Sequence record: NC_041919.1
DNA from: Escherichia phage HP3
Strand: one strand, 5' to 3'
DNA: 64,000 nucleotides
Positions 20,887-63,367 of the stretch are shown one piece after another (the stretch's first letter is position 1; every line of letters starts with the position of its first letter). The translations under genes and the position numbers were made by a program. The notes beneath the pieces were generated by a model. That model saw only the letters and a list, made by a program, of their open reading frames with translations. It ran no database searches and had not been told where the DNA came from.

Positions 20887-21611
20887 ATGAAACTAATCTT
20901 TTTAAGTGGTGTAAAGCGTAGTGGAAAAGATACTACTGCAGATTTTATCATGAATAATTATTCTGCAGTTAAATATCAACTTGCTGGTCCTATTAAAGAT
21001 GCATTGGCTTATGCATGGGGTGTATTTGCAGCAAACACTGACTATCCTTGCTTAACTCGTAGAGAGTTTGAAGGAATTGACTATGATCGTGAGACTAATT
21101 TGAATTTGACTAAATTAGAAGTAATTATGATTATGGAACAAGCATTTTGCTATCTTAATGGTAAAAGCCCAATTAAAGGTGTGTTTGTTTTTGATGACGA
21201 AGGAAAAGAATCAGTTAATTTCGTAGCATTTAACAAAATTACTGACGTTATAAATAATATTGAAGATCAATGGTCAGTCCGTCGTCTGATGCAAGCCCTA
21301 GGTACGGATTTGATTGTTAATAACTTCGACCGCATGTACTGGGTAAAATTATTTTCTTTAGATTATCTTGATAAATTTAACTCAGGTTATGATTATTATA
21401 TCGTTCCTGATACCCGTCAAGATCATGAAATGGATGCGGCTAGGGCGATGGGTGCTACAGTAATTCATGTAGTTCGTCCTGGCCAAAAATCCAATGATAC
21501 ACATATTACAGAAGCTGGATTGCCAATTCGTGATGGCGATTTAGTAATTACAAACGATGGTTCTCTTGAAGAACTTTTTTCTAAAATTAAAAATACACTA
21601 AAGGTACTATA

Positions 21612-21612
<1 letters not shown>
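20887..21612 (+). CDS. 1: Deoxynucleoside monophosphate kinase gp1
   Basis: 241 aa; P-loop-like GVKRSGKDT; matches T4 gp1 length and position. Confidence 0.85.
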
Positions 21613-22297
<685 letters not shown>

Positions 22298-22310
22298 TTT
22301 CACAAAGTTG

Positions 22311-22339
22311 TTTACATACTGATGAGGTAGTGATACTAT
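22311..22339 (+). promoter_or_regulatory. Early promoter embedded in a stem-loop (PeSL-type)
   Basis: -35 tttaca, 17 nt spacer, -10 tactat; inverted repeat gatgaggta / tacctcatc (22321-22348) brackets the -10. Confidence 0.6.
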
Positions 22340-22370
22340 TACCTCATCAAAATTAATTAGGAAAATAAAA

Positions 22371-22628
22371 ATGAAAACTTTCAAAGAGTTTGCTACAAAA
22401 ACTACTATCACTGAATCTTCCCACGGTATGGAAGTAAAGCTTGGAATGGCTTTAGCTGAAGCTGAGCGTCTTTTCTCTCGTATTAAAGAACTTGCTGCTG
22501 CGGTCGATCCTTCATCTTTTAAAGGAGACCAAACTAAAGTTAAAGCACTTTTAGCATTATGCTCCGATGCAGGAGAAATTGCTAAAAATGGTTCTAAGAT
22601 GAAGAAACGATTAGAAGATTTAAAATAA
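22371..22628 (+). CDS. Internal protein (ipI-locus variant) with capsid-targeting sequence
   Basis: N-terminus MKTFKEFATKTTITE resembles T4 CTS MKTYQEFIAE with an L/I-x-E prohead-protease site; position after 57B as for T4 ipI. Confidence 0.55.
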   Translation: MKTFKEFATKTTITESSHGMEVKLGMALAEAERLFSRIKELAAAVDPSSFKGDQTKVKALLALCSDAGEIAKNGSKMKKRLEDLK

Positions 22629-22641
22629 TTTCACAAAGTTG

Positions 22642-22670
22642 TTTACATAGGGTTTTAGTTGTGATACTAT
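22642..22670 (+). promoter_or_regulatory. Early promoter embedded in a stem-loop (PeSL-type)
   Basis: -35 tttaca, 17 nt spacer, -10 tactat; flanking inverted repeat atagggt / accctat. Confidence 0.6.
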
Positions 22671-22704
22671 TACCCTATCAAAACAAAACCAAATGGAAAT
22701 CAAA

Positions 22705-22938
22705 ATGAAAACTTACCAAGAATTTATTGCTGAAACTGCTGATGTAAAAGTTGAGTTTATTTACATTGGCAAGAAAGATAAAATGGGTGAAATGCCTCAT
22801 GGAGTTCTTCGTGATGCATTAGATAATTTCGGTCAACTCGCCGCAGAAGATTACGGTGATAAAATTGTTGTTACTGGTCCTGCTGCAGTTATTGAAAAAT
22901 GGGCAGCAGAAAATAAATCAATTTTTCGTAAAAAATAA
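22705..22938 (+). CDS. Internal protein with canonical capsid-targeting sequence
   Basis: Starts MKTYQEFIAE (identical to the T4 CTS consensus); alternative ATG at 22693 adds MEIK. Confidence 0.55.
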   Translation: MKTYQEFIAETADVKVEFIYIGKKDKMGEMPHGVLRDALDNFGQLAAEDYGDKIVVTGPAAVIEKWAAENKSIFRKK

Positions 22939-22939
22939 G

Positions 22940-22968
22940 TTTACTTTTAGATAGGGTAGTGATACTAT
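22940..22968 (+). promoter_or_regulatory. Early promoter embedded in a stem-loop (PeSL-type)
   Basis: -35 tttact, 17 nt spacer, -10 tactat; inverted repeat agatagggta / taccctatct. Confidence 0.6.
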
Positions 22969-22996
22969 TACCCTATCTACTACTGAGGAGAATAAA

Positions 22997-23182
22997 ATGA
23001 AACGTTGTGAATTAATTCGAAATGTTGCTATTGCAATTTCTGCTTCCGCTTTTAGTTTTTCAATGTTTGTTGGATTTATATGTGGATTATTGACTACAGC
23101 AGAAAATGTGTTTTCACTTGTAGTAGCATTTTTAATTGGTTTAATTGCTATTGTTATGGATAAAATTTCTAAAGGTGAATAA
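22997..23182 (+). CDS. Small hydrophobic membrane protein
   Basis: 61 aa, mostly hydrophobic (VAIAISASAFSFSMFVGFICGLL...); SD gaggag upstream. Confidence 0.4.
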   Translation: MKRCELIRNVAIAISASAFSFSMFVGFICGLLTTAENVFSLVVAFLIGLIAIVMDKISKGE

Positions 23183-23580
23183 TGAACGTTGAATATTATG
23201 TATATGCGGATTACGAAAATAATCCGTCTAAAGATGAAGATAATCGTTTAGGTGTAGATGCTTTCGATTCCCCTGCGGCGGCATGGCAATGGGTTGAAAG
23301 AACCGATATTCCTTACCGTTATATTGAAGTGGTTGACCACGCAGGAAACAAGTATCCTAAGGAAGCATATGTTGCTTCCGGGAAGGTAAATTTCCTTTTG
23401 TTTGCAGGTGATAATTATTATCCCCGTGGTGGGTATACCGATTTAATTGCTAAAGCATTCTCTGAAGATGAACTCCGTGACATTATCAAAGAAAATGAAA
23501 ACAAACCGATGGATTCTAATCGCTTTGATTGGTGGCAAATCGTAAATGCTAATACTCACACTATTGTTGATGAAGGCTGA
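23182..23580 (+). CDS. Hypothetical protein
   Basis: 132 aa ORF, overlapping start/stop (taATGa) with the upstream gene. Confidence 0.45.
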   Translation: MNVEYYVYADYENNPSKDEDNRLGVDAFDSPAAAWQWVERTDIPYRYIEVVDHAGNKYPKEAYVASGKVNFLLFAGDNYYPRGGYTDLIAKAFSEDELRDIIKENENKPMDSNRFDWWQIVNANTHTIVDEG

Positions 23581-23582
23581 TA

Positions 23583-23870
23583 ATGATTCTTTATGCGAAA
23601 GTATCATCCATTGAAAATGGATATAAATATGATCAAGACGCGGCTAAAGCTTTGATTGATGATTATGGCATTTTAACATGTTTTGAAGTTGAAAAGGTTT
23701 ACATTGACCGTTCATCTTCTCAAGTTAAATTAGTGAAGGAAGAACGTAAATTTAATACAGTAAATTTTGATTTCTTTATTGAAACAGAAAAAGGTCCTCT
23801 TGAATATGATATTTTCAAGAATCCTTTGGGTCTTGAATGCATCGTAAATATGTATTATTATAAATGGTAA
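23583..23870 (+). CDS. Hypothetical protein
   Basis: 95 aa ORF, overlapping stop-start with the upstream gene. Confidence 0.45.
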   Translation: MILYAKVSSIENGYKYDQDAAKALIDDYGILTCFEVEKVYIDRSSSQVKLVKEERKFNTVNFDFFIETEKGPLEYDIFKNPLGLECIVNMYYYKW

Positions 23871-23967
23871 ATATGCTTTAAGAATTATTTGTTATTATTA
23901 ACTCATATCGCACTGATTAATACCCTCTATCATCAAGGGTTCTTGCTTAAGAGCCTTTGTTAATAAT

Positions 23968-24040
23968 TGGGAATTAGCCAAGTTGGTAAGGCACTGGATT
24001 TTGATTCCAGGATGCAAAGGTTCGAGTCCTTTATTCCCAG
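23968..24040 (+). tRNA. tRNA-Gln (anticodon UUG)
   Basis: Manual fold: acceptor tgggaat/attccca, anticodon stem ctgga/tccag, loop ttttgat, T-loop ttcgagt. Confidence 0.8.
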
Positions 24041-24715: not shown

Positions 24716-24829
24716 AATTTGTGACAACTGTCACATTAATATCTACTTGACGCGATTATAGGGGTTGAACTGATCACTCTTCTCTTAATTTCGTGTGAAG
24801 ACATCTTGATTGTTGGAGTAGGTATTAAT

Positions 24830-24905
24830 GTGGCCGTAGTTCAGTTGGTAGAACTCGAGATTGTGATTCTCGTAGTCATGGGTTCGACTCCCATCGGTCA
24901 CCCCA
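24830..24905 (+). tRNA. tRNA-His (anticodon GUG) with extra 5-prime G, CCA encoded
   Basis: Acceptor gtggccg/cggtcac, anticodon stem cgaga/tctcg, loop ttgtgat. Confidence 0.7.
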
Positions 24906-24909
24906 ATTA

Positions 24910-24985
24910 CGGGGCATAGCTCAGAAGGAAGAGCAAGGACCTTCTAAGTCCTAGGTCGTAGGTTCGATCCCTACTGCCTCGACCA
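24910..24985 (+). tRNA. tRNA-Arg (anticodon UCU), CCA encoded
   Basis: Acceptor cggggca/tgcctcg, anticodon stem aggac/gtcct, loop cttctaa. Confidence 0.75.
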
Positions 24986-25003
24986 ATTATAAGTGAGGAA
25001 AAT

Positions 25004-25354
25004 ATGAAAGGTAATGTTTATTTAGTAGTTCATGATTTAACATTCTATTTTAATCATAATGATACTGTTATTTCTGAACGTGTAATTAATTTGCTTTATC
25101 AGCATGCAGATTATGTTTATGTCGAAAACGAATATGGTCATTGGCAATTTCTCAAAAATCGTTCATTTGGTTTAGATGGTTACAAATATTTTGATCGTAA
25201 AGACCTTTTAGATACAATTCCGTTATCTACACAATATCAAAATCATAAGTCTTTACATAAATGCCGGCTAATTCGAAATGCTGAATCCGCGTATGAAGCA
25301 ATTGATTTGTGGCGTAAACGCCGTGAATATATTGATTCTTTAAAAGAATATTAA
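25004..25354 (+). CDS. Hypothetical protein
   Basis: 116 aa ORF immediately after the tRNA cluster; SD gaggaaaat upstream. Confidence 0.5.
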   Translation: MKGNVYLVVHDLTFYFNHNDTVISERVINLLYQHADYVYVENEYGHWQFLKNRSFGLDGYKYFDRKDLLDTIPLSTQYQNHKSLHKCRLIRNAESAYEAIDLWRKRREYIDSLKEY

Positions 25355-25658: not shown

Positions 25659-25689
25659 CTTAGCCCCGACCGAAAGGTTGGGGCTTTTT
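25659..25689 (+). terminator. Intrinsic terminator hairpin, repeat copy 1
   Basis: cttagccccgaccgaaaggttggggcttttt: 10 bp stem, GAAA loop, T-run; identical copy at 26216-26246. Confidence 0.65.
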
Positions 25690-25691
25690 GG

Positions 25692-25699
25692 TATAAATA
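25692..25699 (+). promoter_or_regulatory. Late promoter TATAAATA upstream of the internal-protein-like gene
   Basis: tataaata about 38 nt upstream of the ATG at 25738. Confidence 0.45.
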
Positions 25700-26215: not shown

Positions 26216-26246
26216 CTTAGCCCCGACCGAAAGGTTGGGGCTTTTT
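26216..26246 (+). terminator. Intrinsic terminator hairpin, repeat copy 2
   Basis: Identical 31 nt to 25659-25689, followed by a T-run. Confidence 0.65.
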
Positions 26247-26336: not shown

Positions 26337-26900
26337 ATGAAAACCTATGCCGAATTTTTAACCGAAGCAGCAAAATTACCATCTGAAGCAGATCTTACTA
26401 AAGTATTCTTCCAATTGGACCCAAAAGACCGCGGCGATTTTCTTAAGTGGAAAGCTAAAGCTATTGAAATGTACAACATCGATAATAGTTCTTTTACAAT
26501 GAGTCAAGAAAATAAATTCAATAAAGCATTTTTCAAAATTTCTAAGAAATTGGCATCTGGCGCTCAGGTTCCTAAATCTGTGTTAGCTACTCCTGAACGC
26601 GCACCTGTTAAAATTTCTAAGAATATGTTCGACACTAAAAAATACGTTAATGCTTTGAATAAAGCTCTTGATGCATTGGATGATGCAAAGAAGGCAGCCC
26701 GCGATCTTCAAGACGTGTACACCGATTTTGACCGCAAAACTAAAGGTTCTATTTCAAATAGCGAACGCAATAGTGTAAGTGTTTATTCTGATAGCCTTGA
26801 TGTTCTTGGCGATGCGTATACTGAAATTAAAAATCGTATTAACACTGCATCTAAGCTAAAAGCTGCTGCAGAAGCTATAATAAGTAAACTAGGTAAATAA
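26337..26900 (+). CDS. Internal-protein-like protein with CTS-like N-terminus
   Basis: 187 aa; N-terminus MKTYAEFLTEA; SD aaggatt upstream. Confidence 0.5.
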   Translation: MKTYAEFLTEAAKLPSEADLTKVFFQLDPKDRGDFLKWKAKAIEMYNIDNSSFTMSQENKFNKAFFKISKKLASGAQVPKSVLATPERAPVKISKNMFDTKKYVNALNKALDALDDAKKAARDLQDVYTDFDRKTKGSISNSERNSVSVYSDSLDVLGDAYTEIKNRINTASKLKAAAEAIISKLGK

Positions 26901-26906
26901 TTTTAA

Positions 26907-26933
26907 ATCCCTATCTAAATGATAGGGCTTTTT
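26907..26933 (+). terminator. Intrinsic terminator
   Basis: ccctatc / gataggg stem followed by cttttt. Confidence 0.55.
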
Positions 26934-27057
26934 GGTATCTAGGCCTTTCTGGACCTCTCTAGGCATCATTTAGTTTATACCCTTTATAATATATTATCCT
27001 ATCCTTTAATTGCCCATCCCTGCCCTAGAATTCCCTAAAAATTTTTTCACAAAACTG

Positions 27058-27086
27058 TTTACATCTCTGTTCTTCCATGGTACTAT
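27058..27086 (+). promoter_or_regulatory. Early sigma70-type promoter
   Basis: ttcacaaaactgtttaca upstream element, -35 tttaca, 17 nt spacer, -10 tactat, conserved leader acaactatcaact. Confidence 0.55.
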
Positions 27087-27393: not shown

Positions 27394-27494
27394 GTTTACG
27401 CAGGCTCATGATTGAGATATTATGAGCCTATAATTTGACGATAGAGTATTATACTCCTACGGATTTTAAATCTCAATTAACCTAAGGAAATACT

Positions 27495-33514: not shown

Positions 33515-33543
33515 TTTACTTTTCCTCTTGACTGTGGTATAAT
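33515..33543 (+). promoter_or_regulatory. Early promoter upstream of regB
   Basis: -35 tttact, 17 nt spacer, extended -10 tggtataat. Confidence 0.6.
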
Positions 33544-33570
33544 TTTTCTATCAGTTAAGAGGAGAATAAC

Positions 33571-38532: not shown

Positions 38533-38561
38533 TTTACAAGTTGACAAGATTATGATATAGT
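38533..38561 (+). promoter_or_regulatory. Early promoter inside a 13 bp-stem hairpin (PeSL-type)
   Basis: -35 tttaca, 17 nt spacer, -10 tatagt; perfect inverted repeat gttgacaagatta / taatcttgtcaac across 38541-38574. Confidence 0.6.
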
Positions 38562-38589
38562 AATCTTGTCAACTGCCAAGGAGAAGAGA

Positions 38590-41285: not shown

Positions 41286-41308
41286 TTCAAAAATTTTTCA
41301 CAAAATTG

Positions 41309-41337
41309 TTTACAAGCATAAAGCTTTATGGTACTAT
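41309..41337 (+). promoter_or_regulatory. Early promoter
   Basis: ttcacaaaattgtttaca, -35 tttaca, 17 nt spacer, -10 tactat, leader acaactatcaact. Confidence 0.55.
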
Positions 41338-41370
41338 ACAACTATCAACTGATACGGATTTGGAGAATAA

Positions 41371-42340
41371 AATGAAAACTGTAACTATCAATAAGGGTAT
41401 CTACTTCGGTAAAGAAATCTCTGGAACTTTTGAGCTCTTAGGTGAATGGTTCCCAGATAATGCTCCGGTAGATGCACAAGGAGATGGTAAAGTTTTTGTT
41501 GAAATTGACGGTAAGCGTCGCGGTGTTTGGGTTTACAAATCAGACATTTCATATGATGGTGTAAAAGTTGAAGAAGTTAAAGAATCGTATGAAGATATGA
41601 AAACCCGCATTAATAAAAGATTTAATGTTATGGGAATGATGACGAATGGTATTATTAACGGAAACATTCGTTCATTAATTATCTCTGGTGCGGCGGGTAT
41701 TGGTAAAACGTATTCTTTAGATAAAGCTTTAAATAAAGCAAATGATATTGGATACATTGAATATAAAAGCATTAATGGTAAAATCTCTGGTATTGGTCTT
41801 TATGAGCAGCTTTGGAATAATCGTGAAGAGAATTCTGTACTTTTGATTGATGATGTGGATGTTTTCTCTGATATGGACATTCTTAATCTTCTGAAAGCTG
41901 CTCTGGACACCGGAGAGACCCGCAAAGTCTGCTGGAGCACTGCATCTTCTTACTTAGAAGAAAAAGGCATTGAGCGTGAGTTTGAATTTAAAGGAACGAT
42001 TGTTTTTATCACAAACGTTGACATTGACCGCGAATTAGACCGTGGTACTAAACTTGCTCCACATTTACAAGCATTAGTTTCCCGCTCGGTTTATTTAGAT
42101 TTGGGTGTTCACACTAATGAAGAAATTATGGTCAGGGTTGAAGATGTTATTCTTTCAACTGACATGATGCAAAAACGCGGTCTTTCTGATGAAGAAACTT
42201 ATAAAGCATTATCATGGATGAAAGTCAATGTTAATCGTTTACGCAATGTTTCACTGCGTACTGCACTTTATCTTGCTGACTTTATTATGACCGACAAAAA
42301 CGGTTGGGAAGAAATCGCTGAGGTTACTCTTCTGAAATAA
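41371..42340 (+). CDS. AAA+/P-loop ATPase
   Basis: 323 aa from ATG after SD ggagaa; Walker A GAAGIGKT, Walker B LLIDDVD, sensor-like FITN. Confidence 0.55.
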
Positions 42341-42747: not shown

Positions 42748-42776
42748 TTTACAAGACTGTTCCTCTGTGGTACTAT
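42748..42776 (+). promoter_or_regulatory. Early promoter
   Basis: -35 tttaca, 17 nt spacer, -10 tactat, leader acaactatcaact. Confidence 0.55.
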
Positions 42777-42804
42777 ACAACTATCAACTACGGAGGAACA
42801 CAAA

Positions 42805-62629: not shown

Positions 62630-63316
62630 ATGAAACTGTCTAAAGATACACTGAATATTTTGAAAAATTTCGCTACTATTAACTCTGGCATTATGCTTAA
62701 ATCCGGTCAATTTATTATGACTCGCGCAGTTAATGGTACAACTTACGCGGAAGCAAATATTTCTGACGTTATTGATTTTGATGTAGCAATTTACGATTTG
62801 AACGGTTTTCTCGGTATTCTGTCGCTAGTTAATGATGATGCAGAAATTTCCCAGTCAGAAGATGGAAATATTAAAATTGCTGATGCTCGTTCAACAATTT
62901 TTTGGCCAGCAGCCGATCCGAGTACAGTAGTTGCTCCTAATAAACCAATTCCATTTCCGGTAGCATCTGTTGTTACTGAAATTAAAGCTGAAGACCTTCA
63001 ACAACTGTTGCGTGTATCTCGTGGTCTGCAAATTGATACAATTGCTATCACGGTAAAAGAAGGTAAAATCGTAATTAACGGTTTTAATAAAGTAGAAGAT
63101 TCTGCTCTGACCCGTGTTAAATATTCTTTGACTCTTGGTGATTATGATGGTGAAAATACATTTAATTTCATTATCAATATGGCAAATATGAAAATGCAAC
63201 CAGGAAATTATAAACTTCTGCTCTGGGCAAAAGGTAAACAAGGTGCTGCTAAATTTGAAGGTGAACACGCGAATTATGTGGTAGCTCTTGAAGCTGATTC
63301 TACCCACGATTTTTAA
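62630..63316 (+). CDS. 45: DNA polymerase sliding clamp gp45
   Basis: 228 aa, same as T4 gp45; MKLSKDTLNILKNFATINSGIMLKSGQ. Confidence 0.9.
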   Translation: MKLSKDTLNILKNFATINSGIMLKSGQFIMTRAVNGTTYAEANISDVIDFDVAIYDLNGFLGILSLVNDDAEISQSEDGNIKIADARSTIFWPAADPSTVVAPNKPIPFPVASVVTEIKAEDLQQLLRVSRGLQIDTIAITVKEGKIVINGFNKVEDSALTRVKYSLTLGDYDGENTFNFIINMANMKMQPGNYKLLLWAKGKQGAAKFEGEHANYVVALEADSTHDF

Positions 63317-63317
63317 T

Positions 63318-63337
63318 AAAGGGCTTCGGCCCTTTAT
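63318..63337 (+). terminator. Hairpin between 45 and 44
   Basis: aaagggcttcggcccttt; short T-run. Confidence 0.45.
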
Positions 63338-63367
63338 AATTTACACTAAAACTTGAATGAGGAAATT

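Follow-up and report, generated by a model that had tools for sequence, protein, structure and literature searches.

Between gene 57B and the tRNA cluster of Escherichia phage HP3, three T4-type early promoter-like sites (22311, 22642 and 22940, preceding ip5, ip6 and trna.4, respectively) each coincide with a hairpin, and the three elements belong to the described class of PeSL-like linkers and occupy the locus at which such elements were originally seen. They are already known as such: the outline dates from 1994, the formal definition as PeSLs from 2010 and 2014, and the type of element is not new. Each combines the promoter consensus with an overlapping stem-loop, an intergenic site and a location in a hyperplastic region where genes are replaced. 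The sequence-only reading of this DNA (the window, 64,000 nucleotides of record NC_041919.1) had taken such promoter-containing hairpins for sites at which small early genes are shuffled, and that interpretation is supported, at the level of sequence, by cassette variation among relatives, the breakpoints of homology, the mosaic composition of individual elements and the published PeSL class. Probably, the linkers of T-even phages join a strong sigma-70 early promoter to a sense-RNA hairpin that would insulate the cassettes, and exchange of the cassettes would be driven by homology.

The window is that of a Tequatrovirus; positions 21600-24000 match Escherichia phage HP3.1 with 100% identity and the other Tequatrovirus genomes among the top matches listed with at least 99.7%. 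The gene order is gene 1 (dNMP kinase), 57A, 57B, two small genes for proteins with a capsid-targeting sequence (CTS), three small open reading frames and the tRNA cluster, and it is colinear with 1-57A-57B-ipI-trna.4 of T4. All genes and linkers described here are on the + strand. On its left side, the cassette array is flanked by the conserved gene 57B (21839..22297), which encodes an Acb1 anti-CBASS phosphodiesterase (Pfam PF23474 Acb1, E = 2.7e-60) and of which the last three codons and the stop (GAT TTA AAA TAA) lie within a 33-nt repeat common to the end of ip5. The two cassettes encode an ip5-type internal head protein of 85 aa (22371..22628; PHROG 3499, E = 1.2e-49; annotated as ip5/IpV in relatives) with the N-terminal capsid-targeting sequence MKTFKEFATKTTITE, and an ip6-type internal protein of 77 aa (22705..22938; PHROG 8111, E = 2.7e-52; annotated as ip6/IpVI in relatives) with the capsid-targeting sequence MKTYQEFIAE. 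The conserved right flank (trna.4-trna.3-trna.2-tRNA cluster) opens with trna.4 (22997..23182; PHROG 1692, E = 6e-35), a 61-aa open reading frame whose product is a predicted membrane protein according to the T4 annotation. The elements had been described as bracketing single small genes, two for CTS-tagged proteins and one for a membrane protein; the identities of the genes stand, but element 3 heads the three-gene unit trna.4-trna.3-trna.2 and not a single gene. Neither ip5 nor ip6 has its own copy of the late promoter motif TATAAATA, the closest + strand copy lying within gene 1 at 21249. The GenBank records of T4 annotate no promoter or terminator features at the 57B-trna.4 locus. In the record of phage SA21RB, the homologous elements carry annotations of both an early promoter and a rho-independent terminator, as a software prediction only.

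From promoter motif and RNA folding, PeSL-like linkers were assigned to 22286..22370 (linker 1, with a stem), 22617..22704 (linker 2, with an interrupted hairpin) and 22939..22996 (linker 3, with a stem). The stop codons before the elements end at 22297, 22628 and 22938 and the next start codons are at 22371, 22705 and 22997, and in all three cases, as in PeSLs, an AT-rich stretch with a stop codon upstream is followed on its 3' side by a Shine-Dalgarno sequence and a start codon. In element 1, the -35 hexamer TTTACA (22311-22316; GTTTAC at 22310-22315), a 17-nt spacer, TGn (22331-22333) and the -10 hexamer TACTAT (22334-22339) are combined with a perfect 10-bp inverted repeat (22320-22329 / 22340-22349) that leaves a 10-nt loop; transcription is predicted to start near A22346, within the right arm, and the leader ends in AGGAAA. 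Element 2 has its -35 at 22642-22647, its -10 at 22665-22670 and a stem of 7 perfect bp (22647-22653 / 22672-22678), or 11 pairs if an internal loop is allowed; its RNA folds into an interrupted hairpin of 17 pairs at 22639-22686 (22639-22644 / 22681-22686, 22647-22653 / 22672-22678 and 22656-22659 / 22666-22669). Element 3 has the -35 TTTACT (22940-22945), the -10 at 22963-22968 and a perfect 11-bp repeat (22948-22958 / 22969-22979), and its Shine-Dalgarno region GGAGAATAAAA (22987-22997) fits the consensus GGAGRAYARAA for cleavage by RegB (PMC3014915). The promoters had been placed inside inverted repeats of 9-10 bp; the three sites are real, with stems of 10, 7 and 11 bp and slightly corrected coordinates. 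In the resulting geometry, the -35 is outside the hairpin, the left arm lies within the spacer, TGn and the -10 are in the loop, and from about -6 to +4 the right arm overlaps the expected transcription start site.

All three sites match TTTACW-N17-TAYWAT with no mismatches, and the -10 is TACTAT in each. TGn was flagged by the promoter scan in elements 1 and 2, and an identical TGA precedes the -10 of element 3. With their A/T-rich upstream sequence, -35, TGn and -10, the elements have the features of T4 early promoters, which are of the UP/-35/TGn/-10 class (PMC2988021). Given the consensus, and given that element 1 is 100% identical to its T4 counterpart ahead of ipI, the elements are probably active as promoters. 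The literature search found no usable paper on T4 transcription-start mapping.

Upstream of the promoters, the 18-nt motif TTCACAAAGTTGTTTACA (22299-22316 in linker 1) is exact at 22299, 22630 and 54097, with one mismatch at 41297 and two mismatches at 27046, which makes five matches with up to two mismatches in the window versus 0.19 expected. Its recurrence, previously placed at 27043, 41297 and 54096, is real, the copies at 27046, 41297 and 54097 preceding three other early promoters; of the three elements, only elements 1 and 2 have it, and it is absent before element 3. There is no hairpin around the -10 of the early promoters at 27046, 41297 and 54097. The cassettes themselves are bounded by longer repeats: an exact 33-nt repeat (22286-22318 = 22617-22649) for ip5 and the exact 19-nt direct repeat GTGATACTATTACCCTATC (22661-22679 = 22959-22977) for ip6. 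These two repeats could support the formation of mini-circles. A scan of viral contigs with the 18-nt upstream motif yielded 26 T4-like stretches that were used only for enlarging the catalogue of stems; a scan with TTTAC-N14-GTGATAYTAT added little, most of the matches listed being unrelated single ones.

The association of promoter and hairpin is real and not a product of chance. Of the 17 sites in the window that resemble early promoters, four (22311, 22940, 27395 with 8 bp and 38533 with 14 bp) enclose the -10 in a perfect stem of 8 bp or more, whereas 0.15 are expected and the maximum in 2000 shuffles is two. The early promoters at 27058, 37721, 41309, 42748, 45722 and 54109 in the window are without such a repeat. 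Folding energies of the RNA are -17.4, -18.1 and -18.5 kcal/mol for elements 1, 2 and 3 (z = -5.1, -4.0 and -3.0), and those of the DNA hairpins are only about -8 to -9.5 kcal/mol. Across phages, at least eight unrelated stem sequences (TGATGAGGTA, TAGATAGGGTA, TGATGGAGA, TTGATAGAACTA, TAGGACTA, AGGATGAT, AGGCTCAT and AGTTGACAAGATTA) occupy one register, from +8 to +39 relative to the start of the -35 hexamer, which argues for selection on structure; no part of the linker is less conserved than the hairpin arms. In a sample of 35 unique elements, chimeras included, 72.9% of cells pair, compared with 32-39% if the partner is shifted by one or two columns and 56-66% if it is shifted by three, where some element types use a second register. 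Seven of the 14 pairs in this sample are altered on both sides, and the covariation score of 0.162 (0.118 in shuffles) is reached by none of 500 shuffles.

These statistics bear on the reading in which the hairpins have no function and are palindromic remnants inherited with duplicated promoter cassettes. Elements 1-3 have a common core and could be duplicates, and many natural linkers have arms that are not complementary in phages that are nevertheless viable; against it stand at least eight unrelated stems in one position with changes on both sides of the pairs, four stems where 0.15 are expected, and equal architecture at the unrelated promoters at 27395 and 38533, and this reading is very improbable.

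In credible T4-like stems, deviations from Watson-Crick pairing take the form of G.T on the sense strand (for example gatGgggta / taccctatc, gaggta / taTctc and caagGtta / taatcttg), with essentially no A.C, an asymmetry of about seven non-independent cases by which RNA and a single DNA strand look alike. The presence of G.T and near absence of A.C point to folding of one strand, and suggest that this strand is, most simply, the sense RNA. The same asymmetry counts against the proposal that the inverted repeat tunes the promoter as DNA, by assisting the opening of the -10 under supercoiling or as a symmetric shut-off operator, with RNA hairpin and recombination as by-products, since in a double-stranded cruciform both strands must pair and tolerance of G.T but not of A.C is unexpected. 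Such tuning would suit a repeat that is centred on the -10 and TGn in a fixed register, and in T4 early promoters additional positions with no assigned role are conserved (PMC2988021). However, the majority of strong early promoters in the window do without such a repeat, and tuning of the promoter by the repeat is accordingly rated as quite improbable. A sequence-specific palindromic operator was rejected, as the arm sequences are wholly different and unrelated between elements.

Two further roles were tried and rejected. A canonical intrinsic terminator is ruled out by the lack of a U-tract after any of the three stems (the sequences that follow are AAAATT, AAAACA and CTACTG) and by a terminator scan that found no terminator-like site on either strand of 21600-24000. 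Sequestration of the Shine-Dalgarno sequence or ribosome-binding site is ruled out because the stems end 5-21 nt upstream of it (predicted stem ends at 22349, 22686 and 22979; Shine-Dalgarno starts at approximately 22361, 22695 and 22984).

The preferred reading, a promoter joined to a sense-RNA hairpin, distinguishes two kinds of transcript. Each linker would place a strong sigma-70 early promoter (AT-rich upstream sequence, TTTACW, TGn and TACTAT) directly after the preceding stop codon, with a spacer complementary to the first transcribed bases. A transcript started locally would begin inside the right arm and would not form the hairpin, while read-through RNA would carry a hairpin of about -17 to -18 kcal/mol just past the upstream coding sequence. 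The hairpin may then act on the sense-strand RNA, either by attenuating transcription or by forming a barrier that shields or sets the 3' end, and thereby insulate one-gene cassettes; that it is an RNA attenuator or 3'-end barrier is proposed with moderate confidence. Attenuation by AT-rich stems that lack a U-tract is a prediction. Internal proteins are components of the head and are needed late. Because ip5 and ip6 each lack a dedicated late promoter, late transcripts from the TATAAATA copy inside gene 1 probably read through linkers 1 and 2, and if so, the hairpin would be only a partial block and no full terminator.

The comparative alignment across T-even phages that the sequence-only reading had proposed as a check was run, and it finds that the cassettes vary and that homology breaks at the elements. 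The homologous locus was compared in 17 phages: T4, RB14, PST, wV7, teqhad, pSs-1, ESh34, SA21RB, phiD1, VIPECOOM02, ECO07P3, IME340, 310Ecol104PP, three Mosigvirus and one Klebsiella Jiaodavirus. In these relatives, the interval from 57B to trna.4 holds one to three CTS-bearing cassettes of differing identity, or none in Klebsiella KpV477. It contains ipI in T4 and SA21RB; ip5 in wV7, pSs-1 and ESh34; ip6 in teqhad; ip5 and ipI in RB14; ip5 and ip6 in PST and VIPECOOM02, as in the window; a different 94-aa CTS protein in phiD1; two other CTS proteins in ECO07P3, IME340 and the three Mosigvirus; and three other CTS proteins in 310Ecol104PP. Thus, the ip5 cassette is missing from teqhad and has ipI in its place in T4, and the ip6 cassette is missing from pSs-1, wV7 and ESh34. 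Yersinia phage PST has an identical 57B-IpV-IpVI-tRNA.4 layout with three corresponding elements.

In pairwise blastn alignments, colinear homology to the window stops at 22300-22405 or 22681, or at 22726 in the case of RB14, and restarts at 22613, at 22938-22959 or at 22987; the breakpoints of the ip6 cassette are 22681 and 22956-22959. These breakpoints are in or adjoining the linkers, or within the first 35 nt or so of the downstream gene, its capsid-targeting codons, as exemplified by the breakpoint of RB14 in those of ip6. The compared phages are related, so the breakpoints do not count as independent events. Other breakpoints at the locus, where homology is interrupted from 23182 to 23383, 23401 or 23573 and from 23839 to 23862, have no such elements, and the linkers are therefore not the sole route to variation.

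The linkers are themselves mosaics whose modules are, in order, the tail of the preceding gene, the spacer with the left arm, the -10 core with TGn, the right arm, the leader and the start of the coding sequence. Left-arm types A and B occur with right-arm types a' and b in all four combinations (for example in SA21RB #1, RB14 #2, T4 #2 and 310Ecol104PP #1), and leaders L2 and L4 occur with trna.4 and a gene for a 90-aa protein in all four combinations (for example in T4, phiD1, 310Ecol104PP #1 and IME340 #1). By the four-gamete test, which is positive for left versus right arm and for leader versus gene, these combinations indicate past crossovers in the 10-14-nt core between the arms and in the Shine-Dalgarno/ATG region. 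Crossovers within the core would leave arms that do not match, and in the sample roughly every second natural linker does have non-complementary arms (for example RB14 #2, all four of 310Ecol104PP and PST #3); linkers with mismatched arms are so frequent that the hairpin appears to be dispensable, at least in the short term. The module of right arm and leader TACCCTATC-AAAACAAATGTGAGATTGGAGAATAAA is also present 18 kb away in phage G9062, where a hairpin element bounds a two-gene cassette of 494 bp that is absent from the window at 41348-41360, and its presence at this distant locus indicates that modules are dispersed in the genome.

The best reading of this pattern is that recombination would be driven by the conserved flanks and not by the stem. 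The recombining linker is about 120 bp long and runs from the final codons of the gene before it, through promoter and leader, to the first ten or so capsid-targeting codons; crossovers are inferred in all of its conserved blocks, among them the -10 core that separates the two hairpin arms. Since the linker is repeated between cassettes and common to different phages, homologous recombination by T4 functions would suffice to insert, delete and swap cassettes of internal-protein (anti-restriction) genes; T4 recombines at very short homologies without special sites (PMC9391042). It is improbable that the hairpin, folded during replication or transcription as a cruciform or in single-stranded DNA, is instead a recombination signal for a structure-specific enzyme that cuts or binds it, such as T4 endonuclease VII or some novel recombinase, with site-specific exchange like that at the attC sites of integrons. 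A signal recognised by structure would have a stem conserved in position and not in sequence, as is the case here, and the preference for G.T over A.C would fit a fold formed by one strand only, as in attC; a stem-loop-binding protein was also the subject of speculation by Arbiol et al. (PMC2839356), and mini-circles have been demonstrated in RB49/phi1. A site-specific enzyme is, however, difficult to reconcile with inferred crossovers in all conserved blocks (including those upstream of the -35 and in the Shine-Dalgarno/ATG/capsid-targeting codons) at no fixed position relative to the stem, with the commonness of chimeric elements that have no hairpin, or with the weakness of a 10-bp AT-rich stem and 10-nt loop as DNA (approximately -8 kcal/mol), and no recombinase is known at the 57B-trna.4 locus.

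A broader form of this idea, in which the hairpins are strand-specific attC-like signals read by a dedicated factor of phage or host and the interval from 57B to trna.4 is an integron-like capture array, without an integrase, for genes of injected anti-defence proteins, possibly using mini-circles, owes what chance it has to the conservation of register but not of sequence and to the tolerance of G.T but not of A.C; it is best regarded as a long shot. The candidate roles of the hairpin are RNA attenuator, RNA 3'-end barrier, DNA signal or nothing, and the handles on the question are its conserved register with compensatory changes, the bias for G.T over A.C and the frequent natural chimeras without a hairpin. 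Internal proteins are injected together with the phage DNA; Ip1, Ip2 and Ip3 inhibit GmrSD-family restriction enzymes, which are of type IV (PMC12373910), and 57B/Acb1 degrades CBASS signals. The locus is accordingly a compact anti-defence array of which the content shapes host range. The linkers would explain how such an array can be reassorted rapidly in T-even phages while neighbouring genes are undisturbed.

Among known systems, integron cassettes resemble those of the window in that single accessory genes are exchanged as units of an array with imperfect inverted repeats at their boundaries, and the morons of lambdoid phages resemble them in that single accessory genes with their own promoter and terminator are the units of exchange. 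The array between 57B and trna.4 differs from both in having no integrase, a promoter for each cassette, exchange that is apparently driven by homology, and cassettes oriented in the same direction as their neighbours. The T4 genes e, soc, 49 and I-TevI (PMC3014915) also have a promoter in the region of the 5' arm of a hairpin, such that the read-through RNA is structured and the local transcript is not, but their hairpin masks the Shine-Dalgarno sequence or AUG and their internal promoter is late or middle, whereas in the window an early promoter is involved and 5-21 nt separate the end of the 3' arm from the Shine-Dalgarno sequence. The PeSLs of RB49/phi1 (Arbiol 2010, PMC2839356) combine a strong promoter with a stem-loop and lie between the small genes of hyperplastic regions, with the stem often between -35 and -10 or over the -10 (one of five subclasses overlaps the -10), and were proposed as linkers for modular shuffling. 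They have near-consensus TTGACA/TATAAT promoters and G/C-rich stems, unlike the T4 early consensus and the weaker AT-rich stems without a U-tract in the window; one tested stem-loop (PeSL211/210) had terminator-like activity and mini-circles were detected. Arbiol et al. call the elements of the IP locus analogues, not homologues, of the RB49/phi1 PeSLs (PMC2839356), and describe them as based on T4 early promoters with weaker, AT-rich stems. The class was extended by Comeau, Arbiol and Krisch in 2014 to PST/T4 with the consensus TTTACW-N17-TAYWAT, and that paper again points out the IP locus (PMC4122927). As described there, the PST/T4 PeSLs are like the elements of the window in promoter consensus, intergenic position, AT-rich upstream sequence, Shine-Dalgarno sequence and start codon on the 3' side, and adjoining indels or replacements, and they differ in that the legend puts the PST stem-loops just upstream of the promoter (PMC4122927), whereas the stems of the window enclose the -10. 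Both papers credit Repoila et al. 1994 with having seen PeSL-like sequences at the T-even IP loci, of which Arbiol et al. count two (PMC2839356, PMC4122927), and the polymorphism of T-even internal-protein genes that was reported then (Repoila, Tetart, Bouet and Krisch, EMBO J 13:4181) is the same phenomenon at the same locus.

Klebsiella Jiaodavirus phages carry a promoter-hairpin element directly between 57B and the homologue of trna.4, without the internal protein (IP) cassette. The element shares with the window an island of 71-73 bp (22956-23028; 2501-2571 in L017, the record of one such phage) that spans the -10 core, right arm and leader as well as the opening codons of trna.4, and that is 93% identical, whereas the adjoining 57B is only ~75% identical. 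A 494-bp two-gene cassette of phage G9062 (39210-39704 in its record, L002), which is absent from the window at 41348-41360, is bounded by the early promoter at 41309 and by a hairpin-type element that has the same right-arm-plus-leader module as the IP loci of teqhad, phiD1 and IME340. Both trna.4 (22987-22997) and the gene at 41374 (41362-41372) have GGAGAATAAAA as their Shine-Dalgarno region, a sequence that matches the strong RegB cleavage consensus GGAGRAYARAA (PMC3014915) exactly; GGAG is absent from the leaders of ip5 and ip6.

The homologue of trna.3 forms a variable segment (23182-23580, 23839-23870), and no promoter or stem-loop element is associated with its breakpoints. IME340 is missing trna.3 altogether, and SA21RB, VIPECOOM02, teqhad, phiD1, LF82-7 and Mizar have an extra ORF of 516 nt between trna.2 and the tRNA genes. 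Relative to G9062, the window has an insertion of ~635 bp inside the tRNA region (24718-25353), with an ORF of 116 aa (MKGNVYLVVHDL..., 25004-25354) to which no function is assigned. On the 3' side of the tRNA cluster is a second internal-protein locus, with linkers of a different type from the promoter-hairpin linkers of the IP locus. There, a gene with a capsid-targeting sequence (CTS; MKSYTQFLNE...) and a late-promoter motif (TATAAATA, 25692-25699) is flanked on both sides by an exact 31-nt repeat (25659-25689 and 26216-26246) that contains the canonical G+C-rich terminator CTTAGCCCCGACCGAAAGGTTGGGGCTTTTT, and the next CTS gene (MKTYAEFLTEA..., 187 aa, 26337-26900) is closed by a terminator-like hairpin near 26908-26935.

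Outside the IP locus, the -10 box is also enclosed by a stem in the early promoters at 27395-27430 (AGGCTCAT/ATGAGCCT, 8 bp, -15.9 kcal/mol) and 38533-38575 (AGTTGACAAGATTA/TAATCTTGTCAACT, 14 bp, -22.8 kcal/mol, z = -6.8); in G9062, the counterpart of this second element has a G.T pair. At 63312-63345, a promoter-like site (TTTAAT-N17-TATAAT) has a G+C-rich terminator-like hairpin (AAAGGGCTTCGGCCCTTT) within its spacer; terminator and promoter are joined here in another way than in the other elements. In two further early promoters the spacer is complementary to the Shine-Dalgarno region of the gene that follows, at 33515-33565 (ttcctcttgactg...cagttaagaggag, -19.0 kcal/mol) and at 42748-42798 (gttcctctgtgg...ctacggaggaac, -14.5 kcal/mol). 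Because of this complementarity, the ribosome-binding sites of both genes might be hidden in read-through transcripts and open in locally initiated ones, which resembles the control described in the T4 genes e, soc and 49, where the ribosome-binding site is hidden in read-through RNA only (PMC3014915).
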